A stretch of DNA of 60,071 nt from Thermoplasmata archaeon (GTDB lineage: Archaea > Thermoplasmatota > E2 > DHVEG-1): NCBI GenBank assembly GCA_030640585.1, contig DAOWIZ010000080.1, forward strand, positions 1 to 60,071, read 5' to 3'. Positions 6,389-49,271 of this stretch are shown here, piece by piece (the stretch's first letter is position 1; each line of letters starts with the position of its first letter). The notes under the pieces were generated by a model. The model had not been told where the DNA came from. It ran no database searches and worked only from the letters and a program-made list of their open reading frames with translations. The position numbers and the translations under genes are program-made.

Positions 6389-6466
6389 AATAAGTTACCA
6401 TTGCAATTAAGATATACGTTTGTATAGATTTATAGATATATTTTTATTGGGTTTGCATGTCTCTAA

Positions 6467-8491
6467 TTATCTTACTACGGCTACTGTGATAGTTGCATAG
6501 GCAAATCCAGCTGAATCGGCAATGATAATGTTTTCTAAACATTTTACTTTTACTTGTCCTGATGAGATTGATTGATCTGGCATAATGTTTAAGAATATAG
6601 ATTCACTATTTTCTATTTTTATAAAGAATTCGTATTCATCCGATATACTAAAGATTTCTTTTAATTCTTGATAAGGTACTTCTGATAGTTCATATATTTT
6701 ATCCATACTAAGCAGAGCAGTATAATCATTTTCGGTGACACTATTTTGTCTCGAGAGGCTAATTTCTTCTTCATTTCCTGTTAATATATATTTTCGTACA
6801 TTATGTGCAATAACAATGTTGTCTCCAAAGACAACCAAATACGTGTGATATTTTTCTATTTCAAGATTATAGGATGGTGCTTTTTCATATATCTTTTCTA
6901 ATGAAGTGACTTTTCCTTTGAATAAATGGTCTCCGAGCTTAAGATTTCCTGCTTGAATCCATTCATTGTTTATATATAGAAGGTGATCAGGAGTAACCTT
7001 AAGATGGTTGTTTACAATTAAATAGTAATCTGATATCATCTGATTAGGAGTATCATGAAAGATTTGAATTACTTTGTCTTTAGTTAAAGTGCCGGTTTTT
7101 TCATTGTATGATTTAACAATGTCTCCAATTTGGATTTCCTCAATATGTTTTTGTGTTGCATCGGCCATTAATATTTTTGTCCCAGCTAGGAAACACTTTC
7201 CAGTTTCTCCTTCTTCGCCTCCGCTAACAAGGATAGTATGATGAGATGACCAAGGGCTTTCTTTTCCATCACACATAGAATGAGGATCACTGTCATTATG
7301 ACCATTACCTGCAGGGTCATCTGCTGCTTTAACAGTTATGTAATAAGTACCTGCTGTAGACCAAGAATAATTTATATAACAGTATTCTCCTTTCCCTGAG
7401 TAGGGTCCTACCCAATCACTTTGATTACCATCATCAAAATCCCATTTAAAATAAATATCATCACCATCTGGATCTTCGGCATGTGTTCGAAACATTTCTA
7501 CTTTACCTACTTTTGTAGTATCAGGTCCATCTGGCGAATTTGGTTGGTTAGGAGGATCATTTGGAGGCATAACACGTATCATAACCTGTAAAGGTTCTGA
7601 CCAACTACTTTCTTTACCATCACTTAGATCGCCATTACCATCAGGATCATCTTTTGCTTTAACAGTTATGCTATAAATGCCGGGAGAACACCATGAATGA
7701 TACATCGTACAAATCCCTGAACTAGGATATGGTCCCACCCAATCACTTTGAGTACCATCATCCCAATCCCATTTAAAATAAATATCATTTCCTTCAAGAT
7801 CTTCTGTAAATGTCCAAAAACAATAGGATTTATTAGCATGTGGTTGTACTTCCACAAAGCACCACTTAGGTACCTCAGGATCATGTGGAGCAGAATTTGA
7901 CGATGTCGTGAATGTCCATGTTTCTGATGTGATATTACATGTTGAATCATCAACTGTTACATACCAACGGTATTCCTCTCCTTCTGATAATCCAGACCAA
8001 GTAACATTAGCTCTTGTACCACTCTCAACATCAACATCTACATCAATAAACTCTCCATCTCCAGAAGTGACATCATAGAAAGAAACCTTCATTACATCAC
8101 CTTTATCTATATCACTAACATAAACACTTAAATCCACACTGTTAGGTGGATTTGGATTTAAAGGTACAGAATCACCATCACCCGGACTTGGATTTTGTAC
8201 AGTTGGACATGAATTAAGAATAGTAATATCACTTATTGATCCAGTTGGAGGAACGGGTACCGGTGTTTCAGGATCTATTGCAAGACCAACTTGAGAGTCT
8301 GAAGTTAACAATAAACTCATTATCTCTGTAGCCTTTGCATTTGCATCGGCATGAATCTGTGCAGATCCTTGTTCTGCTGGAGGAGCCATCGAAGCAGCCA
8401 CAACAACGAGAGTTGTCATTAATGCTATGCTTGCTATAGAAAACTCAAGCGGCGAAGCAACCCCATAATTAGTTTTATATAATTTCCTCAT
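6467..8491 (-). CDS. class III signal-peptide (pilin-like) surface protein with Fn3-like and two PKD-like modules and an embedded Hint domain
   Basis: N-terminus MRKLYKTNYG|VASPLEFSIASIALMTTLVVVAA. Two repeats of IYFKWD(W/F)DDG.QSDWVGPY...Y.ITVKA.DDP.GNG. Hint blocks CFLAGTKI / TPDH / VIAHN. Confidence 0.8.
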   Translation of the reverse strand: MRKLYKTNYGVASPLEFSIASIALMTTLVVVAASMAPPAEQGSAQIHADANAKATEIMSLLLTSDSQVGLAIDPETPVPVPPTGSISDITILNSCPTVQNPSPGDGDSVPLNPNPPNSVDLSVYVSDIDKGDVMKVSFYDVTSGDGEFIDVDVDVESGTRANVTWSGLSEGEEYRWYVTVDDSTCNITSETWTFTTSSNSAPHDPEVPKWCFVEVQPHANKSYCFWTFTEDLEGNDIYFKWDWDDGTQSDWVGPYPSSGICTMYHSWCSPGIYSITVKAKDDPDGNGDLSDGKESSWSEPLQVMIRVMPPNDPPNQPNSPDGPDTTKVGKVEMFRTHAEDPDGDDIYFKWDFDDGNQSDWVGPYSGKGEYCYINYSWSTAGTYYITVKAADDPAGNGHNDSDPHSMCDGKESPWSSHHTILVSGGEEGETGKCFLAGTKILMADATQKHIEEIQIGDIVKSYNEKTGTLTKDKVIQIFHDTPNQMISDYYLIVNNHLKVTPDHLLYINNEWIQAGNLKLGDHLFKGKVTSLEKIYEKAPSYNLEIEKYHTYLVVFGDNIVIAHNVRKYILTGNEEEISLSRQNSVTENDYTALLSMDKIYELSEVPYQELKEIFSISDEYEFFIKIENSESIFLNIMPDQSISSGQVKVKCLENIIIADSAGFAYATITVAVVR
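6800..7195 (-). other. Hint (intein-like) domain, residues C433-N564 of the 674-aa protein
   Basis: Block A is CFLAGTKILMAD, block B is KVTPDH, block F is YNLEIEKYHTYLV and block G is NIVIAHN. The +1 residue is Val, which is not a nucleophile. Confidence 0.75.
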
Positions 8492-8632
8492 CTACTTTGA
8501 CTCCTATTCTCCTCTGATTTTTTATATCTGCATCTATCTAAATTTCCTATTATATTATACTCTCTTGTTTTTAATATATAAAACTATCGTGTCAAAATGC
8601 CAATAATAGCAGAAAATGTGAAAATAATTTTA

Positions 8633-9145
8633 TTAGTAAATATCATAAGTTATCACCTCAGAAATACATTCATTATCATCACTTAATGTTAAAAAACAAA
8701 TTATTCCATCTGCTTCGTCATTAGTATATGTTAGTCCTATATATTTAGCATCAAAGTAATTACCATTTAATGATTCGGCAAAAAAAACAAATATATCTCT
8801 AGTATCATTAAAATAAGTAAGAACTAGAGGTACAAGAGTTTTTTCTTCGTAATTTAATTTACCGCTAAGTCTATCTCTAAGGGCTATTCCAAATTCCTTT
8901 CGGATATTATCGTAATCAGATTTTATAAAAGATGTTTTATCCAGAGAAACATCAACATTAACTAAACTTACTGTTATAGATGCAAGTGTAATAATTGCTA
9001 CGCTCAAGAAAATACCAGTTAGTAATAATAGTTGCGCATCATCCTTTTTATGTTTTCTACATCTTTTATTTGAATGAATTCTATTTTTGCTGTTATCTTT
9101 GAAGGAAGTTTTTTTCTTACCTAATGTAATTATATCATGTTTCAT
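8633..9145 (-). CDS. small class III signal-peptide (pilin-like) protein with a long basic leader
   Basis: ..KHKKDDA|QLLLLTGIFLSVAIITLASITVSLV, followed by a ~110-aa soluble domain. Lies 4 nt downstream of the preceding gene. Confidence 0.6.
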   Translation of the reverse strand: MKHDIITLGKKKTSFKDNSKNRIHSNKRCRKHKKDDAQLLLLTGIFLSVAIITLASITVSLVNVDVSLDKTSFIKSDYDNIRKEFGIALRDRLSGKLNYEEKTLVPLVLTYFNDTRDIFVFFAESLNGNYFDAKYIGLTYTNDEADGIICFLTLSDDNECISEVITYDIY

Positions 9146-9149
9146 AATA

Positions 9150-9629
9150 TCACCTTAAAGTAAAATACAGGGTGAGGGCTACAATATAAATAAGACCATC
9201 AATTACAACAATTCTGGAGACGCGTGCTTCTTTTCCGATTTCAACTGGTGCCTTATACAATATTTCTGTGATTGGATGATCAGGATCATCTATTTGCCAG
9301 TCGGGATGTTGATTTAGCATCGATATGTTAATCCAGGAGATCCCATACAAAGTTCCTTTGGGAACACTTCTATTAATATAATCTGTAAATTCATCGATGT
9401 ATTCTGCGGTGGCATACCTAGCCAATAAACTAGGATATTGTTCAAGATTATCTGGTACTCCTTCAAGACTTGTTAGAATTCCAATACCCAAAATTTCAAG
9501 TTCATTTTCCTCAATTGTTGTTATACTAGGTGAAATATCAAAAGTTCTGACAAAAAATAGTGCCATAAGTAACATACCAGCTACAATAATGACTTCAAAG
9601 ACATGTATCTGAGCATAATTATTCATCAT
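9150..9629 (-). CDS. small class III signal-peptide (pilin-like) protein
   Basis: MMNNYA|QIHVFEVIIVAGMLLMALFFV. ATGA overlap with the upstream gene. Confidence 0.6.
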   Translation of the reverse strand: MMNNYAQIHVFEVIIVAGMLLMALFFVRTFDISPSITTIEENELEILGIGILTSLEGVPDNLEQYPSLLARYATAEYIDEFTDYINRSVPKGTLYGISWINISMLNQHPDWQIDDPDHPITEILYKAPVEIGKEARVSRIVVIDGLIYIVALTLYFTLR

Positions 9630-11536
9630 TTACCTCCTGAAACATTAATAATTCTTTCACCACGTTGAATAGTTAAATCACCTACAGCCCAATAGTAATC
9701 AGGACCTGGAGTGTCCGTATCATGAAATGTGATCTGTAACTTCCCTCCATCCGCGGCATCTACTGATATGTCAGATATCAACATTTTTTTATAAGAATTC
9801 TCACAACGCGGGACAGGATAAGAATTACCATTTATTGTAATCGTCATATTTTCAACTAGGTTATCTGGATCACCTACGGTAAAGATAAGACTGCAGATAT
9901 CGTTTACTTCTAGACCTTTTGTTAATGTTAAATTTGTGATTGTGAACATAGTAGCAGAACCAGAACCTGTAGAATTGCAAACAAAGTCATAACCAACGCT
10001 TCCGGTATCACGTTCCACTGAGTTTACCTTGTTTGGATTTTCCCATTTGTAATCCCGAGAATGAGTTCCATATACATATGCAACTGGGATTGATTCCTCC
10101 TGACTAGTAACATCCTCGGATACCTTGGCTTCAAATTTGCGAACAAATATCCAATCGTAGTATGCAGTAGTACTATCTTCCGTTGTACAAAGACCGAAAT
10201 AACCATCTCCAATAGGAGCAGGTGCGTATAGGTAGCCGCCAACTGAATAGTTTTCATAAAAATAACGGCAAACTATAGTGTAACTTTCATTTATAATATA
10301 TGTAAGTCTATTCCATCCTTGATTAACAGGCAAATCAGATGAGTTTTTAACTGTAGAAGTATCATCTATTATCGAGAGATTTTTATTATATCCGCTGGTA
10401 AAGTTTCCTGATGCAAATAGATATCCATGATCATAAGGAGCTCCGCTGCTTCCATCGTTTCTTGCAAACATGCTTGCTTCTCTTATATCTCCAACTGTTT
10501 TTGCTTTGGTTTCTATAACACATGAGGATGAACCAACTTGTATTGTGGAGTTTATTGCAGATCCATTTGTTAAAACTAGTTCACCATCCTCAATATATAT
10601 CTCTTCATTAGAAGTATTATACGGGTACCACCTACCAGAATCCGGATATGTCCCAGATGTTGTAAAGTCATCAAAGAAATCAAACGTGGCACTTCCATTA
10701 CTCAAAGGTGATGCAGAAACTTTGCCATGATACATAAAAATAATAGTGTCCTCTGGATATGAAAGAGATGTAATATTCACCCATATTCTTGATGTGTGTG
10801 TATCCCTAGGATACCATCTTTCTATCCAGTAATTTAACTTAGTGCCAGAGTTATCAGTAAAATTTAAGTCGGATCCGTCACTATTAGCCGTTGAATAATC
10901 AAAGTTAGTATCATCTAATTGGATTAGAATCTGATAGTCTGATAAAGGTCCAACTGGATTTTTTATTATAATAGGAGTTCTATATTTCCATTCCTTAAGG
11001 CTATCAGGCCAATTGTTATTGTTTGATGAATTTGTTACTCTTGTATGTCCTGTATTCCCCGTTGAGGTATTAGTACCAAAATCAAATCTATATATGTAGT
11101 CGTAACTATTGCAAGAAATATTTATCGCACCGTTCCCTCCATATATTTTACCGGATATTTCTATCGATTGTTTATTTGTGACATTGTAAAGCGTACTTTT
11201 TTCATTGATATTTCCATTGGTTGATCTAACATATACTGCACTATTATCGATTTCTATATAGTAAGAAAAATGATCCGCTAACCTGAGGGGAATCTCTAAT
11301 ACTGTCGAATAATTTGCATTTGGGTACTGTTCTTTCAATACATAAACATTTATTATCGCGTTTGCCACTCGATTTGCAATATTTTTAGCATGTATCTCAG
11401 ATGCATCACTGGCTTTCTCCTCGATAAGAGCATTAGTTGTAATTATAGTAACAGCGATTATAACCGTTGTTAAAGAAAGTGTTAACATATAACCTATTAA
11501 ATGAGAGACCCCGGAATTATTTTTTAAAATCCTCAT
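9626..11536 (-). CDS. class III signal-peptide protein with DUF2341-like and LamG/ConA-like lectin-type region
   Basis: MRILKNNSG|VSHLIGYMLTLSLTTVIIAV. The central WKYRTPIIIKNP..LSDYQILIQLD..NFDYS.ANSDGSDLNF.D..G.KLNYWIE pattern resembles DUF2341 (family recalled, not searched). ATGA overlaps at both ends. Confidence 0.75.
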   Translation of the reverse strand: MRILKNNSGVSHLIGYMLTLSLTTVIIAVTIITTNALIEEKASDASEIHAKNIANRVANAIINVYVLKEQYPNANYSTVLEIPLRLADHFSYYIEIDNSAVYVRSTNGNINEKSTLYNVTNKQSIEISGKIYGGNGAINISCNSYDYIYRFDFGTNTSTGNTGHTRVTNSSNNNNWPDSLKEWKYRTPIIIKNPVGPLSDYQILIQLDDTNFDYSTANSDGSDLNFTDNSGTKLNYWIERWYPRDTHTSRIWVNITSLSYPEDTIIFMYHGKVSASPLSNGSATFDFFDDFTTSGTYPDSGRWYPYNTSNEEIYIEDGELVLTNGSAINSTIQVGSSSCVIETKAKTVGDIREASMFARNDGSSGAPYDHGYLFASGNFTSGYNKNLSIIDDTSTVKNSSDLPVNQGWNRLTYIINESYTIVCRYFYENYSVGGYLYAPAPIGDGYFGLCTTEDSTTAYYDWIFVRKFEAKVSEDVTSQEESIPVAYVYGTHSRDYKWENPNKVNSVERDTGSVGYDFVCNSTGSGSATMFTITNLTLTKGLEVNDICSLIFTVGDPDNLVENMTITINGNSYPVPRCENSYKKMLISDISVDAADGGKLQITFHDTDTPGPDYYWAVGDLTIQRGERIINVSGGK

Positions 11537-13413
11537 CTTACCCCCCCTATGTTTACTTCGATGAACGAACTATCGAGAACAAAAGACGTTCCATCTGTTT
11601 GATAATATATTGTGTTTGGTCTATCTTGTATTTTTTCAAAATCATATGACATAGTGAAATAATTTATCCATAAATCTTTGACTTCTTTTAATGAATCATA
11701 TATCTGCATTTTGAAATTGTATATGTTGGAAAATTTTGGTTCTCGACTATAGCTATTTTTCATATTGAGTCCAAGTTCATATATTCTAGCACCACCAGCA
11801 CATGCTACATAGGATTCACCTATCTGTATTATCCTAAATCCAATAGCACCATTGCCCTCATCTTCCTCAAAAAAAGATGGACCGCTTTTTATACTATTAC
11901 TTATAGGTCCAAATAATAATATGCCGCCGTTTTCAAAAATTATTTTTTGAGTGCCCATATCATGACGAGACTCATAGGTTATAGAACCAAGATCAAACAC
12001 CCAAATCCTCCCAAAAGGCACATATCCCCTCAAACCACCAGCGGGATAAATATTGTTAAATAAATCTATTCTTAATGTACCGCTTAGTGGTCTGTCATTC
12101 TGAGTGGTTATTGTCCATGTATGAGGAGGACCAACATTATCCGTAACATCAGGAGATTCAGCATGATATGAATCTTCTGGCAAGTAATCTCCTGTTTGAA
12201 CATGTATTTCAGTTATATTATCTGGTTCGTATATAGTTTCATTCTTGTCTTTTGCTTGTAACGTTAATGTATATGTACCGGGTTTTGCATAAATATGCTT
12301 AAAACCATTATACCATGTATTGTTTGGTTGTAAGCCTGAATCGCTGATGCCACCATCTCCCCAAAAAATTCTATAACTAATGTCATCATTATTAGTAGGA
12401 TCCACTGCTTTTACTGAAATCGATTCGTTTACACCAGAATAAAAAGATGGTAATGGGGTAATAAACTCCGGAGTGTTTGGCGTAGTATCATCTATATATT
12501 TTATTCTATATCCCAAATCGTAACCAGGGACTGGATACCAGGATGACCCACCATCCGTAGTAGTATTTGCACCACAAGAACTATAATAAGAACTATAGGG
12601 AGAATCCTTGTCAAGATACCATTTGTAATAATTATAACTCCCATTTGCGAAGCTACCTCCGGAAGTATTTATACCAATATGATAAATTTTAGTAATATCT
12701 AATTGGATGTTGTGTGAACTGAAATCACATTCAATCCACTCATAAGAAGACGATATATCCTCCGATGGCACTATGACAGATGCCAATAGGTTATTTGGGA
12801 TCCCTCCGGTGTATATAGAAACATTTAGATCACTAGAAACTACACCTCTTTCCTCAACATATATCTTAACCTTATCTAATTCCCAGTTATCATTTGGTGG
12901 AGTAAATGATTGTGCACACCAAGTATTTTGATATATCTTTTTATATGGTGTTGTTTCGAAAGCCAATTGCTCTGTTGTTTCTCCAGGATCAAGCCAATAA
13001 ATTTGTACTCCGTCTATAAGACCTAAAGTTTCAGCTTCTATCGTAAATGTATTAGTTTCATTGTCCAAACCTGACACATTGAAATCAAAATCTTTGGGAG
13101 TGTAAGGTGAATCAGGGAATGTATACATTAGTATGAGTTTACTACCTTGAGAATCAATATTTAGAGAGGCTTCCTTATTAGTACTAACAACATTGCTAAC
13201 TCCCTTAGCTCCATATCCATCAATGATTAAACCCCGCATAGTGTTGTACATGATGTCAAATCCACCAAAAACAGTCTGAGATTCACCCATTATCTCTTTT
13301 TCTTCAATATAAGGAAGACCCCAAAAAAGAACCGCAGTTACAACCCCCAATACAATAGAAAGAGTCATTAATGTTGAAACAACCTCACTGACTGCATTAT
13401 TACTTATTTTCAT
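11533..13413 (-). CDS. class III signal-peptide (Pilin_N-like) protein with a PKD-like insert
   Basis: MKISNNA|VSEVVSTLMTLSIVLGVVTAVLFWG. Has one PKD-like module (ISYRIFWGDGG...YAKPGTYTLTLQAKD). Its N- and C-terminal segments are paralogous to those of the 1360-aa protein. Confidence 0.75.
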   Translation of the reverse strand: MKISNNAVSEVVSTLMTLSIVLGVVTAVLFWGLPYIEEKEIMGESQTVFGGFDIMYNTMRGLIIDGYGAKGVSNVVSTNKEASLNIDSQGSKLILMYTFPDSPYTPKDFDFNVSGLDNETNTFTIEAETLGLIDGVQIYWLDPGETTEQLAFETTPYKKIYQNTWCAQSFTPPNDNWELDKVKIYVEERGVVSSDLNVSIYTGGIPNNLLASVIVPSEDISSSYEWIECDFSSHNIQLDITKIYHIGINTSGGSFANGSYNYYKWYLDKDSPYSSYYSSCGANTTTDGGSSWYPVPGYDLGYRIKYIDDTTPNTPEFITPLPSFYSGVNESISVKAVDPTNNDDISYRIFWGDGGISDSGLQPNNTWYNGFKHIYAKPGTYTLTLQAKDKNETIYEPDNITEIHVQTGDYLPEDSYHAESPDVTDNVGPPHTWTITTQNDRPLSGTLRIDLFNNIYPAGGLRGYVPFGRIWVFDLGSITYESRHDMGTQKIIFENGGILLFGPISNSIKSGPSFFEEDEGNGAIGFRIIQIGESYVACAGGARIYELGLNMKNSYSREPKFSNIYNFKMQIYDSLKEVKDLWINYFTMSYDFEKIQDRPNTIYYQTDGTSFVLDSSFIEVNIGGVR

Positions 13414-13671
13414 ATCGTTTAATTATCCTTTAATCAATTTGATCCATTTTTCTGATATTTCTATCAATATTTTCTATGACTAAGTTATGACCCAGAAAAA
13501 CTGATGTTAATATGTTAAGAAAAATATAATCTAGGGTAAAATTATGATTTAATTCTCCTAGCATTCATCCCACTCCTATACTTTATTCTAGAGAACATCT
13601 TAAGCTATCTAATAGCCTATTAATTAAAAAGCTTTTTGCTCTTATATTCATAGGATAGAAGAAGGAACAGT

Positions 13672-16600
13672 TTATTCTAAATTGATTTTAATTAAAGCCG
13701 TTTTAAAAACCAACTGTTTTCCGTTATAACCGTCATAAGCTAGGAAACCATCAGATTGAGACTTAAACTTATAAGTCCTTGTTAAATACTCATGCCAAGA
13801 ACTACTATGTTCACCTGAATATTTGATTTTTAAACCATATGCATTGCAGTTCTGTTCATCTAAAAATCCTTGTTCTCTGGTAAAAGTATTCAGATTTTTG
13901 AAAGAAATCTCATAAGTTTCAGCACCACTACCGCTTTTTGAAACAGTGGTATCTTCTCTGATCATAGTTACGGTAAATCCAAGAATGTTTCCGTTCTCAA
14001 AGATATTATTTGAATAGCTACATCTATCTACACTGGCATCACCTGATAAAACTGACAATACACCACCATTCTGAAGAATTGTCTTATGTTCTCCATCTGC
14101 AACAATACGTCCAGTCTTAAACCCATAAATTTTACCAAATGGAACTTTACCTGCAGCAGGATCATTTGTAGATGGATAATTGTCGTTAAATAGATAGATG
14201 CAAAACGTACCAGTTAAATCCTTCTTAGTAGGGACGATGGGCATACTGATAGGATTGCCACCAAATGATTCGGAGGATATATTATCTGGTGGAACAATAT
14301 ACTGATCAGACAGTCTTATCGCCATTGGATCAGACCAATCACTCGTATCCTCATTTACATCTTCGGCTTTAACTCTAATTTCGTAAACACCAGGAGATGT
14401 CCAATAATGCGAGGGATATGGGCCACCCCATTCCTCAATGCTCGTATTAGCAGGATAGCTGCTACCAGTCTTATAATACTCGCTGCCATCTCCCCAGTCA
14501 AACCAATAATAAATATTATCTCCCTCTAAATCAAAAGATATGACACTAAAGATATACTCAATATTAGTACCATCTACACCACTGTAATACCTCGCAGGAT
14601 CGTCAACTCCAACAGCTGTAAAACCAGTAGGAATAGCAGGAGCACCGCCTGCGCTTACAAAAGCACAAACCTCATCATCATAAAAACTAGTTTGACCAAT
14701 TGTATCAGTTACACGAAGCATACACGTATGAGTATTATAATCACCATAATCATGGCTAACAGTATCGGATGAACCAGAATCATCAGCACTAAAAACCCCG
14801 GTATAATCAAAATCCCAGGCAAACTCATTTATACCATTATCATCAGATGAGCCACTAGCATCAAAATCAATTGTAGCATTCGGGCCACCATTATCAGCAT
14901 CAGTCCAATCGAAAAGAGCAGTTGGAGGATTATCTCCCGGTCCAACAGCCTGAACAATATGTGAGGTATAACCATATGCACCATCGTTGTCCCTTACACG
15001 AAGCCAACAGTTATGAGTATTATAATCAGTATAATTATGGATAACATTGACACCATAAGCATCAGGAGTAAAGAATGTCATTCCATCCCGATCAAAGTCC
15101 CATGAATAATTTACTATCCAACCACTACCTGAATCAAATGAACAACTAGCATCAAAACTTATTTCAGCACCCGGATCACCACCATCAATATCATTCCAAT
15201 TGAAACAAGCCGTTGGAGGATTAGCAGTTGAAGCAGTAGTACTAGCATAATCTGTACTCCATCGCCCATAATACTCCCCGGTACTTACTAATTCTTCTTT
15301 AGCATAGGTCCATGCGCGTATGTAATAGGTTATACCAGGGGTTACAGAGTTTGTACATGAGGCTCCCGTATCATTATCGTACCAGACCAACGCAGATGAA
15401 TCATCTGGATCCGAAGGATAACTACCAACCTTAGCTAATACCTTTGTATACACAACAGCACCAGTAATGTCACATGGTGCTTTATCCCATGTAACACAAA
15501 TCGTATTCGGGCCAGAGCCACCTTCATTTTTAGCTAAGTTAGAAGGTGGAGGTGGCACTGTAAAGAAAGGCTCTGGTCCACCATATTCAGTAAAAAACGA
15601 ACTTTCAGGAGTAACTGCTTTGGTACTCGCAACATATAAATCCCCTGAATTAAGATCTGCAACCTCTGCATCAAATGGACCCGCAGTGACACGATTCCCA
15701 GCAGGCTCATAGGCAGGTCCACATGAGGGAAAACAATTTGTATAACCAACAGAACACGCAGTTCCTTCACTACGCGTAGCGTCTAAAGCAAAAAGTAACC
15801 CGCTATCATCCAAATAACCGCTCAATGTTGCCGTAGTTGTTCCAACGTTTTCCTCGGGCGGCGATGTTGTAGTGACCTCAGGTTTCTCAACATAATGGAC
15901 TATTAGTTTCGGTTTATTACTACTGGCTCTACGTGAATAAAAATCGAAATGGTCAGTTTTATCGCCAGATTCATGGCCGGAAATCAGCCAACCATAATTC
16001 GTTCTTGTACCATCCCACATATCTCTTGTACTTTGTGTCATACCCCTACCACCATATAAAGGAGAACTATCACCCCAAGTCACCCAGCCAAAACTACTGG
16101 GTAATGTCGCTTCTGCAATTGTGTCAACATTAGACTCAGGTGGTGGTCGCAGTCGCATATGCACTCGGTGGGCACCTAATAAGGGCCACTCTTGGAGGCC
16201 GGATGCATCCCAGTATCTCCAGCTGGTATCACCGGATCCGGCCTCCAAGCCCTTCCAGTCATAATCATTAACTTCATTAGCAAAAACTGCATCACCGGCA
16301 GGATTATCTTCTAAATATTGGTAATAATATAGCTTCAATTCTGCTTTCTCAATAAATGCATCAGAAGGAATTTGATATAACGAAAATTTTAGTAATGCTC
16401 GATTCTTAGTACCAATGGGACCAGGATCAACTCTTAGCCACTCTTTCGTACAGCCATCTGTGTTAGTAGGGAAAAATCTCGAAATATAACAGTCTCGATG
16501 TGAATAAAAAGTTCTCCCTGATTCTGGTTCTTCTTCCTCTAGTGTTGTAAAATACCATGCCGGACCAATAGTAGAAAGATCATGATTATCCCTCGCAACT

Positions 16601-17754
16601 ATCTTCCAAAAATATGCTGTTTCATAGTTAAGTTCGGGTAGATTATACGGTATTGGTGTATAGTCATAGTCAAATGGTCCAATCGTATCATAATATGGTG
16701 GATTTAATGGATTTTGAGTACCAAAGTATATATCATATGTAACAGTATCACCAGAATCTGGATCACCTCCATCCCAACTAAGGTCATGATGGACATCGAC
16801 ATCGGTTTCGCCATCCTCTGGATCTGGATTACTGGGAACAAACGGAGAATGATCTATATCACCAAGCGGTTTAAGCTTAAACGGGGCACAAGACATCTTA
16901 CTAACACCAACAGAACCGGAAACAACAACAGCTTCAACATCTGACTTTGCTAAAAAACCATCAGCGAAATAGGCATTACCTGATTCCAAAATTAAATCAA
17001 AACTACGTTCCTTTGAAAAATTTTTTTCTATTGAAAACAACGAGATCTCTTCACTAGCTACATCAAATAAAACATCACCCACACTTAGCATTCCAGCTTC
17101 AACCCACATGTTATCAACAAATAACCTGTGATTAGGAGTAACTCTTAATTCATTATTAATAACTAGATAATAATCACTCATACGATCCGCACTATAAGAC
17201 AACAGTGCCTTTACATAAGCATCAACAAACTCCTTAGAAACTTCATCATATGACTTAACAACATCCCCTGCTCTGATGTCCTCAATGTTCTTCTGGGATC
17301 CATCTGCCATATCTATTTTTGTACCCGCAAGAAAACATGTATCATAAAGCCAATAAACAGTGGCACTATGGACATCTGGACCAGAAATAGAAAACTGATT
17401 ATCATCCAGAGTTACATTAAAATCCCAATCTTTATCATTAGAGTTAGAGTACAAGATTATTACCCCTTCATCATCGGAATCATCAATCCCAATAGAACCA
17501 CTGTTAATAGTAATCTCACTAGTGAAACTAGAACCATTCCCATCTCCAACTAAATTTCCAAGAACCTTATCAGCGATTTTAAATTGATTAACAATGGATT
17601 TATTCTCATTTTTATTTTCCTCGGTTTTAATGTACTGTGGTCCCCACACAAGAATTGTACCAGTTGCTGAGAAAAAAATCATCATTACAAGGAGTAAAGA
17701 TAGTACAGATGAGACAGCTTCATTATTTATTCTAAAATTTTTTATTTTTTTCAT
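13672..17754 (-). CDS. giant (1360 aa) class III signal-peptide protein: pilin-like core split by a Hint domain, Fn3-like modules and three PKD-like modules
   Basis: MKKIKNFRINNEA|VSSVLSLLLVMMIFFSATGTILVWG. CFLAGTKIDMADG Hint block at residue 140. PKD-like YSWDFDRDG, FAWDFDYTG and YYWFDWGDG modules. GGAGGGG SD upstream. Confidence 0.8.
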   Translation of the reverse strand: MKKIKNFRINNEAVSSVLSLLLVMMIFFSATGTILVWGPQYIKTEENKNENKSIVNQFKIADKVLGNLVGDGNGSSFTSEITINSGSIGIDDSDDEGVIILYSNSNDKDWDFNVTLDDNQFSISGPDVHSATVYWLYDTCFLAGTKIDMADGSQKNIEDIRAGDVVKSYDEVSKEFVDAYVKALLSYSADRMSDYYLVINNELRVTPNHRLFVDNMWVEAGMLSVGDVLFDVASEEISLFSIEKNFSKERSFDLILESGNAYFADGFLAKSDVEAVVVSGSVGVSKMSCAPFKLKPLGDIDHSPFVPSNPDPEDGETDVDVHHDLSWDGGDPDSGDTVTYDIYFGTQNPLNPPYYDTIGPFDYDYTPIPYNLPELNYETAYFWKIVARDNHDLSTIGPAWYFTTLEEEEPESGRTFYSHRDCYISRFFPTNTDGCTKEWLRVDPGPIGTKNRALLKFSLYQIPSDAFIEKAELKLYYYQYLEDNPAGDAVFANEVNDYDWKGLEAGSGDTSWRYWDASGLQEWPLLGAHRVHMRLRPPPESNVDTIAEATLPSSFGWVTWGDSSPLYGGRGMTQSTRDMWDGTRTNYGWLISGHESGDKTDHFDFYSRRASSNKPKLIVHYVEKPEVTTTSPPEENVGTTTATLSGYLDDSGLLFALDATRSEGTACSVGYTNCFPSCGPAYEPAGNRVTAGPFDAEVADLNSGDLYVASTKAVTPESSFFTEYGGPEPFFTVPPPPSNLAKNEGGSGPNTICVTWDKAPCDITGAVVYTKVLAKVGSYPSDPDDSSALVWYDNDTGASCTNSVTPGITYYIRAWTYAKEELVSTGEYYGRWSTDYASTTASTANPPTACFNWNDIDGGDPGAEISFDASCSFDSGSGWIVNYSWDFDRDGMTFFTPDAYGVNVIHNYTDYNTHNCWLRVRDNDGAYGYTSHIVQAVGPGDNPPTALFDWTDADNGGPNATIDFDASGSSDDNGINEFAWDFDYTGVFSADDSGSSDTVSHDYGDYNTHTCMLRVTDTIGQTSFYDDEVCAFVSAGGAPAIPTGFTAVGVDDPARYYSGVDGTNIEYIFSVISFDLEGDNIYYWFDWGDGSEYYKTGSSYPANTSIEEWGGPYPSHYWTSPGVYEIRVKAEDVNEDTSDWSDPMAIRLSDQYIVPPDNISSESFGGNPISMPIVPTKKDLTGTFCIYLFNDNYPSTNDPAAGKVPFGKIYGFKTGRIVADGEHKTILQNGGVLSVLSGDASVDRCSYSNNIFENGNILGFTVTMIREDTTVSKSGSGAETYEISFKNLNTFTREQGFLDEQNCNAYGLKIKYSGEHSSSWHEYLTRTYKFKSQSDGFLAYDGYNGKQLVFKTALIKINLE
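16942..17337 (-). other. Hint domain lacking the C-terminal His-Asn (Hedgehog / B-type BIL-like), residues C140 to about S271 of the 1360-aa protein
   Basis: Block A is CFLAGTKIDMADG and block B is RVTPNH. The terminal region is SFDLILESGNAYFADGFLAKS, with no HN. Confidence 0.7.
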
Positions 17755-18066
17755 TTTTATATCCCCTCCAGAGGATTATTAAATCTAATAATATGTCTTA
17801 AAGTGCATTCCATGTGAACTAATAGATAACTCGCTAAAAAACTTTTTGCAGATGTTGTATAATTGTACATTGCTTTCCTACTCCTCGCGATATATTCTGT
17901 TACTTTTAGTATATAAATGTTTCGTGACAAAATGCTAAATATGTCAAATTGCGCTTCGGGTACCACTCATTTCCACTCACTTCGTTCACTATAGACCAGG
18001 TGAAATTCTTTCTTTAAAAGGATTATGTAAAAGTATACAAAAATATATATTTATTAGAGAACAGTT

Positions 18067-18443
18067 GTGACATCCTCCCACCACCAAAATCATAGATTTT
18101 GGATGGGGGCTTCCAGTTTAACTTCACTATATTTACTCCTTCACAGCCTCTGCTCAGGGAGCGTTATCTTGGAATTTCCGGTTCCTGCTTCATCCACCAG
18201 ACTCGGTCTCCCATTTCTGGGGTTACGGAGGTCTTGATGTCCAACCTACCAAGTCTACCTTGGTCAACATATTGCCAGCACTTTCAGCCTTGCAATAATA
18301 CGGCTTTACACAGGCGTAAATTAGAGGTTGCCCCTCCCTATTTAGGTGATAGATATGCAAAGTAGATATATAAAGATAACGTCAATTCATCTACCACCAA
18401 ACATTTTGTTTGGAAGTAGACTTCTTGACCGGAAAAAAGTTAA
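18067..18443 (-). mobile_element. MITE-like non-autonomous derivative of the TnpB element (both ends present, no ORF, GC-rich structured core; omega-RNA-like)
   Basis: Right-end hairpin ggaagcccccatCCAAAATCtatGATTTTGGtggtgggaggatgtcac, and left-end hairpin ctaccaccaaac-attt-tgtttggaagtag plus cttcttgaccggaaaaaagttaa. Both closely match the ends of the element at 24446-25804. The tnpB 3' remnant (aatttacgcc) is broken by stops. Confidence 0.6.
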
Positions 18444-18470
18444 ATAAATTGAAAATATATCAAAAAAACA

Positions 18471-24449: not shown

Positions 24450-24620
24450 ACTACCACACCACCAAAATCATTGATTTTGGAAGTGGCTTCCTAATTCAAT
24501 GACCGTACTCGCCAAAACTGTTTTCAGTCTTGGCGGAGGTACAATCTCCAAAGGCGTAAATTCGGGCAATCCCTGCCCTATTATTTGTTTTAGACCCCTC
24601 TCCAATATGTTCAGAGAGGC
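24446..24620 (-). ncRNA. candidate omega-RNA (reRNA) scaffold overlapping the tnpB 3' end and the right end
   Basis: Position is analogous to known TnpB omega-RNAs. This segment is the part conserved at nucleotide level in the ORF-less copy at 18.1 kb. A terminal hairpin is visible. Extent is not determined. Confidence 0.4.
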
Positions 24621-25646
24621 ATTATAATCCCTGTCAAGAGATTTACCATACTTATATATCTGTGACGTGTAACTTGGATCTACTTTGACCATTATCTTAC
24701 CAGCCCATTCTGCCTTGTAAGATAATATATCAAAGAATTTTCTCCAAGATACATCAAGTGTATTGCGTCTCATATGACGCTTTATTTGTTTAGATTTCTC
24801 TTCATTGCCAATGGATTTTAACATACCTGTTATGTTCAAATCTTCAACGCTGATGAAGTCAAACGTATCGACATAATGCTTTGCAACCTTATGGCAGAAA
24901 TCAGCACGCTGATTTGCCACCTGCTCATGCAGTCTGGCAACACGAACAATCTGCTTCTTTCTATTGTTTGACTCTTTTTTAGTCCTTGACAATCTTTTCT
25001 GCCTGCATCTTAACCGTTTCAAAGATCTCTTCAGATACTTCGGATTCTCAATGATTTTACCTGTTGTGTCAGTCAGGAACTCTGTGATGCCCATATCCAT
25101 ACCAACAATCTTTTTGATAGGTTGTTTCTGAACTGATTTGACTTCTTCAACAATTATATTTGCAAACCATCTACCAGATCTGTAACGCTTGATGATAACT
25201 TGTTTGATGTTTTCATCGAAATCCCTATGCATACGCATAGGTATATCTCCAACTTTGGAGATATGCAACCTGTTGCACTGTGTGTTCGTTGGAATAATTT
25301 TGAACCCGCTCTGATTGTAATGAATGGTTTTGAAACCAGCACTGCTTTTGAAACGCAGTCTACCAACTTTTCTACCTTTCTTCTTAGACTCAGATAATGC
25401 CTTCAAGTTGGAAAACAAACGATAAACCTCATGTTGCAATGCTTTAGAATAAACACCCTTCAAATGAGGATATTGCTCTTTCAACTTTGGCAGAGAGTTC
25501 TGCAAAGTATATCTGTCTGGTTTATCTTGTTTCTGCAATTGTTCAAGCATTACATTGTAGACAAATTTGCATTGTCTCATTGTCCAAAGCAGTTTTTGCT
25601 CCTGTTCTTTGTTTGGATACAAACGATACTTGTATGTTTTCAGCAT
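24468..25646 (-). CDS. tnpB: TnpB (IS605 OrfB-type RNA-guided nuclease homolog), zinc-finger-less variant
   Basis: N-terminus is MLKTYKYRLYPNKEQEQKL. RuvC motifs are GMDMGI, FISVEDL and DRDYNASLNI. Only 8 residues (IYKYGKSL) lie between TSQ and DRD, where the CxxC..CxxC finger normally sits. Confidence 0.9.
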   Translation of the reverse strand: MLKTYKYRLYPNKEQEQKLLWTMRQCKFVYNVMLEQLQKQDKPDRYTLQNSLPKLKEQYPHLKGVYSKALQHEVYRLFSNLKALSESKKKGRKVGRLRFKSSAGFKTIHYNQSGFKIIPTNTQCNRLHISKVGDIPMRMHRDFDENIKQVIIKRYRSGRWFANIIVEEVKSVQKQPIKKIVGMDMGITEFLTDTTGKIIENPKYLKRSLKRLRCRQKRLSRTKKESNNRKKQIVRVARLHEQVANQRADFCHKVAKHYVDTFDFISVEDLNITGMLKSIGNEEKSKQIKRHMRRNTLDVSWRKFFDILSYKAEWAGKIMVKVDPSYTSQIYKYGKSLDRDYNASLNILERGLKQIIGQGLPEFTPLEIVPPPRLKTVLASTVIELGSHFQNQ

Positions 25647-25820: not shown

Positions 25821-26480
25821 TTAGTGACATATCACATTATATATTAGACCATCTGTTCCTTGAAATCCCTCTGTTCCAAATGTTCCTTCTTTATCACTTA
25901 CGATTTTTTCCCAGATGGATGTATTAATCGTGGTGTTACCATCTGCGTAATTTGTGATCTGGGCAACACCAATACAGATGACAGATGTCCCAGATGACCC
26001 GCAATTCCATACTTCTCCAATGATTTTTATCTTTTCAGGTGGATCTGTTGAATTTTTAGTTCCATTGTAAATGATATATGTTGTTTTATGCTCGTTTTTT
26101 AAAACACGTTCCCCAATAACCATGCTATCAACATCAATGATTATCCCATTTTCTTCTGCGGCTTCTATTGACACCTGTGTCTGTTCTTGTAAGCCTTTTT
26201 CATTCATCATCACAAGTGTTTTAATTGTTGTAACCGTGAGATACGCAGGATAAATTCCATTTTCTTCATATGTAAAACTACCCCATTTCTCCAAACCTAA
26301 CATCTGATCACCGTGTTCTCGTTTATCTGGATTTTCAACCCATCCATTTGTAATAACATCATCATCTACATATGCCTGTGTAAACTCTCCACCGCTGAAA
26401 ATAATACCAAAAAAAATAACTATGATTACGAAAAACGCGATACCCATGTATAGTTTTGTATCCCTAGCCTCACCTTTCAC
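25821..26480 (-). CDS. membrane-anchored extracytoplasmic protein, unknown function
   Basis: 219 aa with a single N-terminal TM segment (LYMGIAFFVIIVIFFGIIF) followed by a soluble domain. Confidence 0.55.
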   Translation of the reverse strand: MKGEARDTKLYMGIAFFVIIVIFFGIIFSGGEFTQAYVDDDVITNGWVENPDKREHGDQMLGLEKWGSFTYEENGIYPAYLTVTTIKTLVMMNEKGLQEQTQVSIEAAEENGIIIDVDSMVIGERVLKNEHKTTYIIYNGTKNSTDPPEKIKIIGEVWNCGSSGTSVICIGVAQITNYADGNTTINTSIWEKIVSDKEGTFGTEGFQGTDGLIYNVICH

Positions 26481-42178: not shown

Positions 42179-45100
42179 TTATTTTCGTCTGCGTCTGAGT
42201 AGTATGAATGCTACTCCAAGTGCTGCTATCAGTGTTAGTAGTTCGAAACCAGGTGCACCAGATACAATAGTTACTGACTCAGGATATGTTGCAACATCAA
42301 ATGTTCCAAATGTTGCTGTTATTGTATATGTACCTGTTTCTGTAAATGTTACTTGACCGTTTACAGTAGTACCTGTCGTAGCAGTACCTTCGGTTGGAGT
42401 GAATGTTACTGTTGCCCCGGTAATCAAAGCACCTGTATCTTCATTGGACACCGTTACAGTTACAGGAGACACAAATTTATCATCTTTATCTTTGTTTTCG
42501 CTGGTTACAGTTATTGTTAGTCCAGGCGTGTTAATTACACGTATTGACACTGTGTTCGGCTCTGGAGCATATCCTATCTTTGATGCAGTTATTGTCAAGT
42601 CACGGTCACTTGTAACCTGTGGAGCTGTAAATGTTGCTTGTCCGTTTGCATCTGTCTGCAATGTTTCTCCGTTAAATAGTACATCTGCACCTATGGCAGG
42701 TTCAGTGGTTCCTTCTTTCATGGCTGTAACTGTAAAGGTTCCGCCTTCTTCCACTGTTGTCACATCTATACTAAGGTCTAGCACCCAAGATGTAACTTTG
42801 ACTACTGTACCAACTAGCGTTTTACCACTTTCACCTACATCTATGCTAATGTTACCAGTTGTTGCTGGTGAAATAGAGAACGATACTCTACCATCTACAT
42901 CTGAAGTACCGTTTCTGTCAAATCCGCAACCATGTAGACGTACAAATACATCTGTTAGTGTTGTACCACGTCCTGTCACAGTCGTATATACCTTTGTTGT
43001 TCGTCCAAGTGGTATATAACATATACCATCAGATGCCTGTGGAGTAGGCGCAACGGATGGTATTTCCACCTTAATACGATCTTTACATTTTGCCCATTGA
43101 CCATCACTACCATCTGCTTGCAGTGGTTTAAACCATAATGTAAGGTATTGTGTTGCATTAGCACCCAGTTCACAAGCTGTTATTTGATCTACCTTTACAA
43201 CACCATTTACAATATTATCGCTGCTGATTTCAATCGACGTACTTCCAGTATCAGAACCATAAGTCACGCTACTAAAGTTACAGTACACCCAAGTCTTGTT
43301 GAATGTCCCTGCATCAGTCATATTGTCTATCCTTAGCGCACCGTTTGTAGGTTCACCATCATATGTCATAGTAAATATTGCGCTTATGTTGTTGTCTTCT
43401 CCTTTCCAGATCAACGGTGCTTTGTCACATGTAGCCTCTACTGGTTTTATCACAAGAGTTGCATTATATCCGTTACTGTTATGTGTATAGTTATAAGCAT
43501 GTACTGTATATGTACCTGCTTCAATACCCCAAACAGTATCAAACTCAAGTGAGTAAGTGACAGGCACGTGACTGTGTCCAGTCAGATAGGTATCATAAAT
43601 GTTGTTAAGTAAGTTATTTGATTCACTTGTACCTGTTACATCATCACCATTTGAGTCTATCAGTTCTATAACAAACTTATCTCTTTCTGCAGCAAGAATG
43701 TTTGGAACGTCTGTAGAGTTACCAGCAAATGTAGTATTGATGTAAAAGTTATCATACTCATATCCTGCCATAAGTGTCTCATGAGATATCTCTACTTCAA
43801 GATCACTTACTGGCTCCATCTCAACAAGTGCATAACCATCACGGTGACCTGCACCATCCACGAACACGGTCAAATTTCTTGGAGCCCTGATATTGGAAAA
43901 AAGAACTGTTGTTTGATTTGTTGTTTGCTGTGTCCTATTAAATAGTATTGAACATGTTGAACCAGATGCATCAATTTTGTCAACCCATGCATTTGTAACC
44001 TCATCATCCATTGGGTCACATGGACTTCTACTTGATACAACTGTTGATGTGTAATCATCGACATAGAAGAGGTATACTGTAGTTCCCCTCATATCCGAGC
44101 CGTCATCTGCATATTTAGCGGTTACAGTTAACGTCTGGTCCTGTTGGTCAATGTCAAACTTATTTGGGCTTACTGTCACTACGGTACCATTTTGGTCATA
44201 GTTAGCTCCTCCAATGGAGATTGTTTTTGTTATAGTAGTGTTATATGCAGTTATTTTAATGGTTATCGTTCCACCGCCACTGCTCATCGTTGGTATAATT
44301 GGAATACTCCATACACCAGTTGCTGCACCATTGAAACCACATTTAGCTGTATCTAGGCCATAACCAGGGAAACTACTTAGTTTACCAGTAAATAATGAAT
44401 CACCAGAAATGGTAATATTCTCTGCACAATCTCTAATCTTTGAACATTTACCACTATGATATCCTGCAGTTGTATCACCAAAGTAATTACCACCCTTATC
44501 ATATAGATAAAATTCTACATCTAGTGGCACACTGGCTACAGGTGGAACATATGGTATTACTCCATCGTTGTTACTCTTTTCATATCCCCAGAGCTCGGTA
44601 CCAACTGTTCCATCATCATCTATCCATTTAAATTGGAGAGACGGGGCCTTCTTAACTTTGAATTTAACAGTGGTATTATATTCTTCAGTATAGGCTTTAT
44701 GCTCACCATTTGCAATTCTATCTCCATTATAGTCTACATATATTTTAACTTTCCATGTACCATTAACACCTAAAGCATTTGTAGTTGCTAAATCGGCACT
44801 GTTGTTTCTACCCCACCTTGTCATATTAATATGTATGTATCCGTCCCTGTACTTGTCCTTATATACAACGATACAACCAGCGGCATCATCAGCACCTATA
44901 ACATCTTGTGTCCCACTAACACCTGTTCCTTTAGCAAAATCAGTGATATTAACGCCAGCAGTATTTATTACCGAGACCTTGACATCAGATGCGTCAAAAG
45001 CTGGTCCGCCACTTCTCTTAAGTAGAGTTATATTTAATTCGCCAGTGAAACCATAGTACATAGTGTAATTACCAGTTGGTAAATTAGTATATGGCGTTGC

Positions 45101-49140: not shown

Positions 49141-49229
49141 CCCGCCTTAGCTCAGTCTGGCTGGAGCGGCCGGCTGTAGACCCTATGGCCGTTACCGGCA
49201 GGTCCCCGGTTCAAATCCGGGAGGCGGGA
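49141..49229 (+). tRNA. tRNA-Tyr (GUA) with a ~14-nt intron at the canonical 37/38 position
   Basis: Acceptor CCCGCCU/AGGCGGG (C1-G72, the archaeal Tyr identity pair). Anticodon stem GCCGG/CCGGC, loop CUGUAG + A interrupted by 49180-49193. T arm CCCGG-UUCAAAU-CCGGG. Confidence 0.9.
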
Positions 49230-49271
49230 CTATTTTATATAACAGAATTAGGTTTTTGTTTGGTTGACTAT

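Follow-up and report, generated by a model that had tools for sequence, protein, structure and literature searches.

A candidate relocated subunit module of a type IV pilus-like filament, with Hint domains at core-cargo junctions, in a Thermoplasmata archaeon

Introduction

Archaea have type IV filaments as their main surface machines; to our knowledge few of these have been studied, and none from sediment Thermoplasmata. Six adjacent genes on a contig of a Thermoplasmata archaeon raise a question about such systems: what are proteins that begin like archaeal prepilins, reach as many as 1,360 amino acids (aa), and lie apart from any genes for filament assembly? The DNA analyzed here, referred to as the window, is one whole contig of 60,071 bp (DAOWIZ010000080.1, assembly GCA_030640585.1), and we designate the six genes A to F. 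An earlier reading of the window, made without database searches (the sequence-only reading), had taken their products for pilus-tip or minor-pilin adhesins, or for a distinct surface display system that uses the pilin pathway. We propose, with a probability of about 0.65, that A to F are a relocated subunit module, made up of minor pilins and adhesins, for a type IV pilus-like filament with autoprocessing junctions. Under this proposal, the filament system is specific to uncultured Thermoplasmata.

Results

The gene cluster

The six open reading frames (ORFs) are consecutive on the minus strand, and all are present and intact, with exactly the coordinates and sizes described before. Arrows mark predicted prepilin cleavage sites.

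Gene A, 13672..17754, minus strand: 1360 aa; in order, leader, N-half of a DUF7289-type core, Hint domain, cargo modules, C-half of the core
Gene B, 11533..13413, minus strand: 626 aa; leader MKISNNA↓VSE, core N-half 8-143, 299-aa insertion, core C-half 443-626; without Hint
Gene C, 9626..11536, minus strand: 636 aa; DUF7266 7-130, DUF2341 220-303, then a beta-rich region; predicted tip adhesin
Gene D, 9150..9629, minus strand: 159 aa; small pilin-like protein, MMNNYA↓QIHVFEV...
Gene E, 8633..9145, minus strand: 170 aa; small pilin-like protein with a 37-aa leader, ...KKDDA↓QLLLL
Gene F, 6467..8491, minus strand: 674 aa; leader KTNYG↓VASPLEF, helical N-terminal region, Fn3-like module, two PKD domains, Hint 433-564, tail

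Four of the genes had been called linked, and these are B, C, D, and E: B/C and C/D overlap by 4 nucleotides (nt) each, and D and E are 4 nt apart. Spacers of 258 nt and 141 nt separate A from B and E from F, respectively.

Pilin-like N termini and family matches

All six N termini consist of a short leader, Gly or Ala at position −1, and about 20 hydrophobic residues, just as quoted in the sequence-only reading. The cleavage-site motifs (A↓VSxV, G↓VSHL, A/G↓Q(I/L/M)xVxE, A/G/S↓QL(L/I/F), and G↓V(A/S)SPLE) are kept in orthologues that are otherwise 30 to 65% identical; orthologues of E have leaders of 15 to 35 aa. An ad hoc rule for class III signal peptides (Gly or Ala at −1, a mean Kyte-Doolittle value of at least 1.7 over the next 20 residues, and a basic, non-hydrophobic leader) selected five of the six cluster proteins versus 2 of 80 other window ORFs of at least 80 aa. 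D is missed solely because its 6-aa leader contains no Lys or Arg. The two outside ORFs that pass, a 1,461-aa ORF (42179-46564, minus strand; RKIGG↓ILVAML..., with a weak CarboxypepD_reg-like match) and a 219-aa ORF (25821-26480, minus strand; LYMG↓IAFFVI...), may be ordinary signal anchors.

Family profiles place these proteins to different degrees. The product of gene C matches the Pfam family DUF7266 with 32.8 bits (gathering score 27.6), and homologues of B as well as shorter relatives described below exceed the DUF7289 cut-off. Of the families suggested for a check, DUF7289 was matched by relatives of A and B; DUF7287 and DUF7288 were not confirmed for D, E, and F, and Pilin_N ("Archaeal Type IV pilin, N-terminal") stayed below threshold (22.7 versus 25.2 bits, in relatives only). 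Searches of D and E together with seven orthologues against Pfam and NCBIfam gave at best DUF7288 (E = 0.009, one D orthologue) and DUF7261 (E = 0.13), both unconfirmed, and hhalign comparison of D and E with the other cluster families gave no significant match. F is related to the other families through its N-terminal helix only (hhalign, 71%). The literature searched held nothing relevant on DUF7266, DUF7261, DUF7287, DUF7288, or DUF7289. Together, the family matches, a profile search, predicted structures, and synteny support a type IV pilin-like nature for the cluster proteins.

A pilin-like core split at a single site

The 626- and 1,360-aa proteins had been noticed to share segments at both ends, from which a conserved pilin-like core with an expanded internal site was proposed. 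The shared segments are real: aligned to each other, the N-terminal segments of A and B are 30% identical (E = 5e-13), as are the C-terminal segments (E = 3e-19). In A, they lie as follows.

DUF7289-type N-half of A, 17338..17715, minus strand: residues 14-139; hydrophobic helix and beta strands, with a YWL motif at the end
DUF7289-type C-half of A, 13675..14217, minus strand: residues 1180-1360; VPFGKIY...NGG...KINLE

Besides its Hint domain, A carries a leader (residues 1-13, RINNEA↓VSS), an Fn3-like module, a DNRLRE/CBM96-like module (421-619), further Fn3-like modules, and three PKD domains (859-1138). The 299-aa insertion of B holds a conserved beta-sandwich (about 150-310) and one PKD domain (333-394). 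PKD and Hint modules had been predicted in the giant proteins and were found, joined by DUF2341 and DNRLRE/CBM96-like modules. The cargo part of gene A (14001-16000) has a G+C content of 0.41, versus 0.32 to 0.36 around it, which amino-acid composition or cargo modules of foreign origin could explain.

A profile search with the C-half segment alone, run against 1.84 billion representative proteins, returned 351 clusters. Among the 150 of these that were listed, family proteins range from about 326 to 1,888 aa, and only a few do not have the segment at the extreme C terminus. In members of about 330 aa, N-half and C-half are contiguous; these unsplit relatives match DUF7289 (a profile of 238 positions) with up to 55 bits at a cut-off of 27. 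More distant homologues of B match the same profile in two pieces, the N terminus covering positions 2-85 and the C terminus 102-229. Both parts were matched in P0017, P0019, P0021, P0023, P0291, P0180, P0210, and P0214, with P0017 and P0023 above the cut-off and P0021 narrowly below it (25.9 bits). The window's own A and B gave no match to the Pfam DUF7289 profile at E values up to 10. In hhalign comparison with the unsplit family, however, the N-half of B maps to positions 8-139 (99.9%) and its C-half to positions 166-332 (100%); because both halves fall onto the unsplit relatives in this way, the idea of a core with an expanded site is correct.

The size of the insertion varies widely. In 105 complete representatives, it is below 60 aa in 31, 109 to 124 aa in 6, 150 to 500 aa in 23, and 500 to 1,580 aa in 45.

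AlphaFold models agree with a pilin-like core. The model of B (pLDDT 79.6) has a helix at residues 5-65 followed by beta structure, and that of an unsplit relative (pLDDT 89.2, pTM 0.83) has a helix at residues 11-66. A predicted N-terminal helix of 55 to 60 residues followed by beta structure is the hallmark of pilins in these models. Among PDB sequences, a profile search matched archaeal pilins weakly and over the helix only (E = 0.11). A Foldseek search of the B model against the PDB returned generic beta-sandwich, GH2-type, and PKD matches and was uninformative about the core.

Gene order in related genomes

The window had been said to hold no pilus machinery. Pfam scans of 36 window ORFs found no T2SSE ATPase, T2SSF platform protein, or A24 peptidase, and tblastn of the window with the ATPase, both T2SSF proteins, the 408-aa thioredoxin-like protein, Rpr2, and S19e of a relative gave no match, in agreement with that observation.

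In related contigs, the cluster is a stable unit. All 10 distinct contigs keep one or two A-like genes followed by B, C, D, E, and F. Every one of the nine that reach past F runs into a ribosomal cluster (S19e), with the RNase P subunit Rpr2 ahead of S19e in seven, and in all six that reach far enough upstream, the module comes right after T2SSF genes. One or two T2SSE ATPases are visible as well in four of these six. Linkage to an ATPase and a platform is thus present in the relatives' modules and absent for the window copy, and this synteny is the strongest evidence for the pilin nature of the cluster. All relatives with a name belong to uncultured Thermoplasmata or Thermoplasmatales, and they come from sediments and comparable habitats. 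The archaeon of the window has an unsplit RpoB and a split RpoA.

Two features of the relatives' loci stand out. The T2SSE ATPase of L003 (320-2575), also seen in L008 and L009, carries two C-terminal HHH_5 domains; helix-hairpin-helix domains of this kind are normally DNA-binding. Some loci encode a tandem pair of ATPases. Moreover, a thioredoxin-like polytopic membrane protein adjoins the module in 6 of the 10 contigs, before A or after F. This conserved operon partner (L003 4492-5718, also in L001, L006, and L091, and longer in L007 and L009) is not encoded in the window. The protein combines a signal peptide with a thioredoxin-like CxxC domain, matched by Pfam below the cut-off (E = 1.7e-4), and its polytopic membrane domain bears two Cys-Pro motifs reminiscent of CcdA/DsbD; it may supply reducing power outside the cell.

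How, then, did the window copy come to stand alone? The whole cluster occupies a block of about 12 kb (6389-18470), flanked by an MBL-fold gene on one side and a radical SAM gene on the other. About 35 related contigs (within L010-L089), whose MBL-fold protein is 63 to 76% identical, show the order FTHFS, RPA, RPA, DtdA, MGMT, MBL, (radical SAM), LplA, LipA, DUF63, Fe-ADH without A to F, and in them the distance from the MBL gene to the radical SAM or LplA gene is 0.8 to 6.5 kb. Because the same neighbors stand without A to F in relatives, we read the block as an insertion of the module into a variable spot; judging by gene order, the window module is one that was moved or copied from an operon with ATPase and platform genes. 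The MBL-LplA interval differs between contigs (secreted proteins, a PhzF-like gene, and others) and is in effect a flexible island within a block of housekeeping genes that is otherwise conserved.

The distinct display system that the sequence-only reading had derived from the missing machinery is not supported. The absence is peculiar to this genome and relocation would explain it; since it is secondary, a separate system is not called for. Haloferax (PMC4858521) and Cuniculiplasma (PMC12448462) are documented cases of pilin genes well away from the machinery, and the latter, a member of the Thermoplasmatales, also has two ATPases and a split platform.

The same evidence bears on whether A to F are simply S-layer- or adhesin-type proteins of the cell surface, exported by Sec and held there by a signal anchor, with no relation to type IV filaments. 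Such an explanation would fit a window without machinery and the position of A, B, D, E, and F, each by itself, under the Pfam pilin cut-offs. It would leave unexplained the DUF7266 match of C, the DUF7289 matches of homologues, the G/A↓V-S or G/A↓Q motifs kept across orthologues, the 55- to 60-residue N-terminal helix in the models, and a module that follows T2SSF genes in six upstream-reaching relatives, four of them also with T2SSE. We therefore consider it very improbable.

Hint domains at the core-cargo junction

Two of the six proteins carry a Hint domain of about 132 aa, and the two copies are 40% identical.

Hint of A, 16942..17337, minus strand: residues 140-271; Cys140 directly after ...VYWLYDT; TPNH 206-209; C terminus FLAKS, without His-Asn
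Hint of F, 6800..7195, minus strand: residues 433-564; Cys433, TPDH 500-503, end ...IAHN↓V (here the arrow marks the end of the domain)

Hint domains are present in 46 of the 105 complete family representatives: 42 lie at the N-terminal junction, 2 at the C-terminal junction, and 2 internally. At the N-terminal junction, the domain directly follows the last strand of the N-half (...YWLxxT, then CFLAGT...); in F-type proteins, it precedes the conserved C-terminal tail. P0130 consists of N-half, Hint, and C-half only.

We sampled 50 Hint copies from clusters formed at 50% identity. The first cysteine (Cys1) and the TxxH motif are each retained in 49 and the C-terminal His-Asn in 38; a second tally agreed in 24 of 24 copies. 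The residue after the domain (+1) is mostly Asp, Ala, Gln, or Pro, with Ser or Thr in seven of the 50. F and the 38 copies with His-Asn have the features of type-A bacterial intein-like (BIL) domains (Cys1, His-Asn, a non-nucleophilic +1 residue, and no endonuclease), and on its residues the Hint of F matches this type. In the clade of A (9 of the 50), His-Asn is replaced by (K/R)-Ser while Cys1 and TxxH are retained. C-terminal cleavage and self-excision are impossible in A because His-Asn is lost; the residues that remain suggest that its Hint is still able to cleave the bond ahead of Cys140 or to transfer it. The solved sequences nearest to these Hints are pretoxin-type Hints and the BIL 2lwy. 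Inteins proper were considered and rejected, as a +1 nucleophile is missing (Val in F) and A ends in Lys-Ser without His-Asn.

Conservation is concentrated around the Hint. In A, the N-half and Hint are 61 to 64% identical to the closest orthologues versus 44% elsewhere; in F, the Hint and tail are best kept, with 81% identity to P0026 despite different cargo. Unrelated cargo between conserved ends in such close relatives (F versus P0026) suggests cassette exchange. Tandem arrays of 2 to 5 Hints occur in some A-like and F-like relatives (L007 1223-4264; L008 6532-9855 and 15783-19709; P0026; P0028), and several of these tandem Hints end in His-Asn followed by Ser or Lys.

Could the Hints be neutral intein-like passengers, excised by type-A BIL splicing and without a role in the filament? 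Most copies keep Cys1, TxxH, and the C-terminal His-Asn, a few have Ser or Thr at +1, some relatives carry extra tandem copies, P0130 resembles a plain Hint insertion into the core, and ligation of the flanks is possible for type-A BILs (PMC4031507). In the same source, however, cleavage products outweigh the spliced product, and the clade of A (9 of 50) keeps Cys1 and TxxH although (K/R)-Ser in place of His-Asn rules out excision. Moreover, the Hint is the best-conserved segment of both A and F, it lacks a homing endonuclease, and 44 of 46 proteins have it where core and cargo meet. We consider neutral passengers unlikely. The sequence-only reading had listed the Hint as one more cargo module; it is instead a conserved, apparently catalytic domain at the junction of core and cargo. 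Its position, its conservation, and the loss of His-Asn in the clade of A speak for a function that has been kept at the N-terminal junction and against a decaying selfish element, and stop short of proving cleavage.

A different use of the same chemistry would be, in place of an adhesive pilus, a short pseudopilus-type secretion or display device, in which the pilin-like N terminus serves export alone and A and F shed their PKD/CBM-type cargo into the medium through Hint cleavage. Six conserved pilin-like proteins with no obvious major pilin recall the pseudopilins of type II secretion systems, and a cut at the N-terminal end of the Hint of A would release a fragment of about 1,220 aa. Pretoxin Hints free C-terminal domains in bacteria, and the domains here match Pfam PT-HINT; it has also been proposed that archaeal type IV filament machines become "functionalised" by binding proteins (bioRxiv 10.64898/2026.04.22.720090). 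Release sits poorly, however, with B and C, which have large modules and no Hint, and with the C-half, which ends every family member and is contiguous with the N-half in unsplit relatives. A conserved C-half at the end of every member is a sign of cargo that remains joined to the core, and a secretion device of this kind seems to us quite unlikely.

We give still less credence to F, and perhaps A, as a polymorphic toxin-like effector whose pretoxin Hint frees a C-terminal toxin. PT-HINT is the best Pfam Hint match in F and about 110 aa follow its Hint. That tail is nevertheless 49 to 81% identical among orthologues and ends in a beta strand, like the other cluster proteins. No immunity-like gene follows F: Rpr2 or S19e comes next in 7 of the 9 relatives that reach past it, and in L007 and L009 the thioredoxin-like membrane protein lies between F and Rpr2. 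The toxin assignment was rejected on these grounds, that is, conservation of the regions after the Hint among orthologues and no immunity gene, and we hold it highly improbable.

Our searches of the literature found no description of a Hint or intein-like domain in pilins or archaeal adhesins, and we could not find the Hint-at-junction architecture of this locus reported.

Regulatory, intergenic, and other elements of the window

Upstream of A and of F lie two copies of a promoter- or operator-like element.

TTTTGTCACGAAACATTTATATA, 17910..17932, minus strand: promoter/operator-like element, 156 nt upstream of the A start codon
TTTTGACACGATAGTTTTATATA, 8575..8597, minus strand: promoter/operator-like element, 84 nt upstream of the F start codon
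Small ORF in the A-B spacer, 13430..13564, minus strand: 44 aa, MLGELNHNFTLDY..., with GGAG upstream

The 23-nt element, TTTTG(A/T)CACGA(A/T)ANNTTTATATA, has exactly two matches in the window versus 0 expected by chance, and related elements precede the A-like and F-like genes of three relatives. It looks like a TATA box plus an upstream operator common to both Hint-bearing genes. The region upstream of B to E is different and likewise conserved.

The A-B spacer is 77% identical in nucleotide sequence to those of L002 and L006, and in L090 a similar 46-aa ORF (MDEKLNNNFPLDF...) is called upstream of B. Possibly the 44-aa ORF in this spacer is one more gene of the module, a seventh that went unannotated.

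A G+C-rich island of about 300 bp (18065-18375) lies in the stretch from the A promoter to the radical SAM gene. It gave no Rfam match at E values up to 1, no similarity to machinery proteins, and folding z-scores of about −1.1 on either strand, and it may be a junction remnant.

Elsewhere in the window are two genes of IS605 OrfB/TnpB type (Cas12f-like TNB), one full-length and one truncated (24468-25646 and 47522-48253, both minus strand), which point to mobile-element activity on the contig. A 90-nt tRNA-like gene (49141-49230, plus strand; Rfam tRNA, 51.7 bits) overlaps the start of the Trm5/TYW2 ORF. ARAGORN calls an odd four-base anticodon for it, and it is probably an intron-containing archaeal tRNA.

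Discussion

The isolation of the cluster from pilus machinery, which the sequence-only reading had pointed out, is confirmed and is explained by relocation, and the pilin reading is supported. Several points weigh against a relocated pilus module with autoprocessing junctions. Taken alone, A, B, D, E, and F are below every Pfam pilin-family cut-off. Membership of A and B in the DUF7289 family rests on hhalign profile comparison and on homologues, and D and E have no significant family assignment in Pfam, NCBIfam, or hhalign comparisons. A Foldseek search of the unsplit relative against solved structures (best E = 0.025) found no resemblance to the globular part of DUF7289. No major, filament-forming pilin was identified. 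For the source genome, of which the contig covers 60 kb, no ATPase, platform, or peptidase is visible, and assembly in trans is accordingly an assumption. Finally, cleavage activity of the Hints is inferred from residue conservation alone, and conserved catalytic residues are equally expected of a neutral self-splicing element.

If A to F are nevertheless subunits of such a filament, each product would be inserted into the membrane by its N-terminal hydrophobic helix and trimmed after Gly or Ala by a prepilin peptidase encoded elsewhere, and a T2SSE ATPase with a split T2SSF platform would assemble the subunits in trans. In A and B, the globular part is broken at one fixed site, after the YWL strand, by inserts of 300 aa (B) and 1,040 aa (A) made up of apparent binding-type modules (PKD, Fn3-like, and DNRLRE/CBM96-like). 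C, with DUF7266 and DUF2341, would be the counterpart of a predicted PilY1-like tip adhesin; D and E would be small pilin-like subunits, and F a pilin-like carrier of PKD modules. Based on the proposal for DUF2341 proteins (PMC4858521) and on bacterial modular pilins (PMC8179133), we place C and the cargo-laden A, B, and F tentatively at or near the filament tip as adhesins. The shaft would be built by D, by E, or by a pilin encoded elsewhere.

After export of A, an N-S acyl shift at Cys140 would form a thioester and the chain could be cut between Thr139 and Cys140, splitting the pilin N-half from the Hint-cargo-C-half part. In F, Cys433 and Asn564 could bring about cleavage at one or both ends of the Hint, or ligation of the flanks in the manner of type-A BILs. 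A cut might yield a two-chain adhesin held together by the core halves, release of the cargo, or transfer of the thioester. The thioredoxin-like membrane protein of the relatives' operons would suit the need for a reduced cysteine outside the cell. We entertain, as a tentative idea with a modest chance of being right, that the junction Hint serves surface chemistry of this kind, for example a non-covalent two-chain adhesin whose cysteine is kept reduced by the thioredoxin-like protein. Such an adhesin would be a force-sensitive break point, as SEA and GAIN domains are, which could be useful to wall-less or weakly walled Thermoplasmata.

The family shows how far a pilin can be loaded: from 0 to about 1,580 residues are inserted at a single site. 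In nearly half of the complete representatives, an apparently active self-cleaving domain marks the border of pilin and cargo. Should cleavage prove true, it would add a new post-export maturation step for pilins, give archaeal intein-like domains a clear functional role, and offer a small natural scaffold for display on the surface, with release built in. Subunit modules also move independently of the motor genes, which matters for automated detection, as this relies on the co-location of genes.

How the locus compares with known systems

We group the locus with type IV pilus loci of the euryarchaeal "clade 2 / system 2" kind, whose pilin sets are their own; Haloferax volcanii has an example in its PilB4-type locus (PMC4858521; Makarova, Koonin & Albers 2016), and such loci are also treated in a preprint by Sivabalasarma & Albers (2026; bioRxiv 10.64898/2026.04.22.720090). 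Shared features are a VirB11/T2SSE-type ATPase with extra terminal domains and a TadC/T2SSF platform, followed by FlaFind-type pilins and large adhesin-like proteins; DUF7266 and DUF7289 are also in common, and pilin sets can lie in trans. The locus differs in that the relatives' platform is encoded in two genes, with two ATPases in some, in that pilin-like proteins reach 1,360 aa here (1,888 aa in the family) and two carry Hints, and in the thioredoxin-like membrane protein of the relatives' operon. Neither of the two papers describes a split platform, such giant sizes, Hints, or a thioredoxin-like partner.

The CdiP pilus of Cuniculiplasma divulgatum (PMC12448462) likewise comes from the Thermoplasmata, with two ATPases, a split platform, and pilins about 500 kb from the machinery. 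Unlike the system described here, it is Aap-like and has small pilins (CdiPA/B), without giant pilin-like proteins or Hints.

Large DUF2341 proteins of Methanococcus and Thermococcus Epd-type pilus loci have been proposed as PilY1-like tip adhesins (PMC4858521). C resembles them in combining a class III-type N terminus with DUF2341 inside a row of pilin genes; the ATPase clade and the companion pilin families differ, and the tip role is a proposal in both systems.

Bacteria also have modular pilins, among them PilB (vWA) and PilC (lectin) of Streptococcus sanguinis, CofB, and GspK, which carries a domain inside its pilin beta-sheet (Raynaud et al. 2021, PMC8179133). As in the cluster proteins, binding modules are grafted onto a pilin and probably displayed at the tip; GspK is a precedent for internal insertion, and the bacterial minor pilin-PilY1 complex is similar in logic (PMC8179133). 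The bacterial modules, however, are mostly C-terminal additions, with 860 aa as the largest case and no autoprocessing domain reported, whereas here cargo lies between two conserved halves of very large proteins, often with a Hint at its start.

The Hints themselves compare best with BIL and pretoxin-type domains. According to PMC4031507, which summarizes BIL types A and B after Amitai et al. 2003 and Dassa et al. 2004, type-A BILs form an N-terminal thioester, cyclize a C-terminal Asn, and give mainly cleavage products; they are also able to join their flanks through aminolysis. The domains here are likewise small, without an endonuclease, and found in secreted or variable hosts, with Cys1, TxxH, a His-Asn end (type A), and a non-nucleophilic +1 residue. 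BILs were defined as a family in Bacteria, whereas these are archaeal and occupy a fixed site in pilin-like proteins. In the clade of A, where His-Asn is lost, the outcome would be like that of type B or Hedgehog domains, yet derived from a type-A-like sequence.

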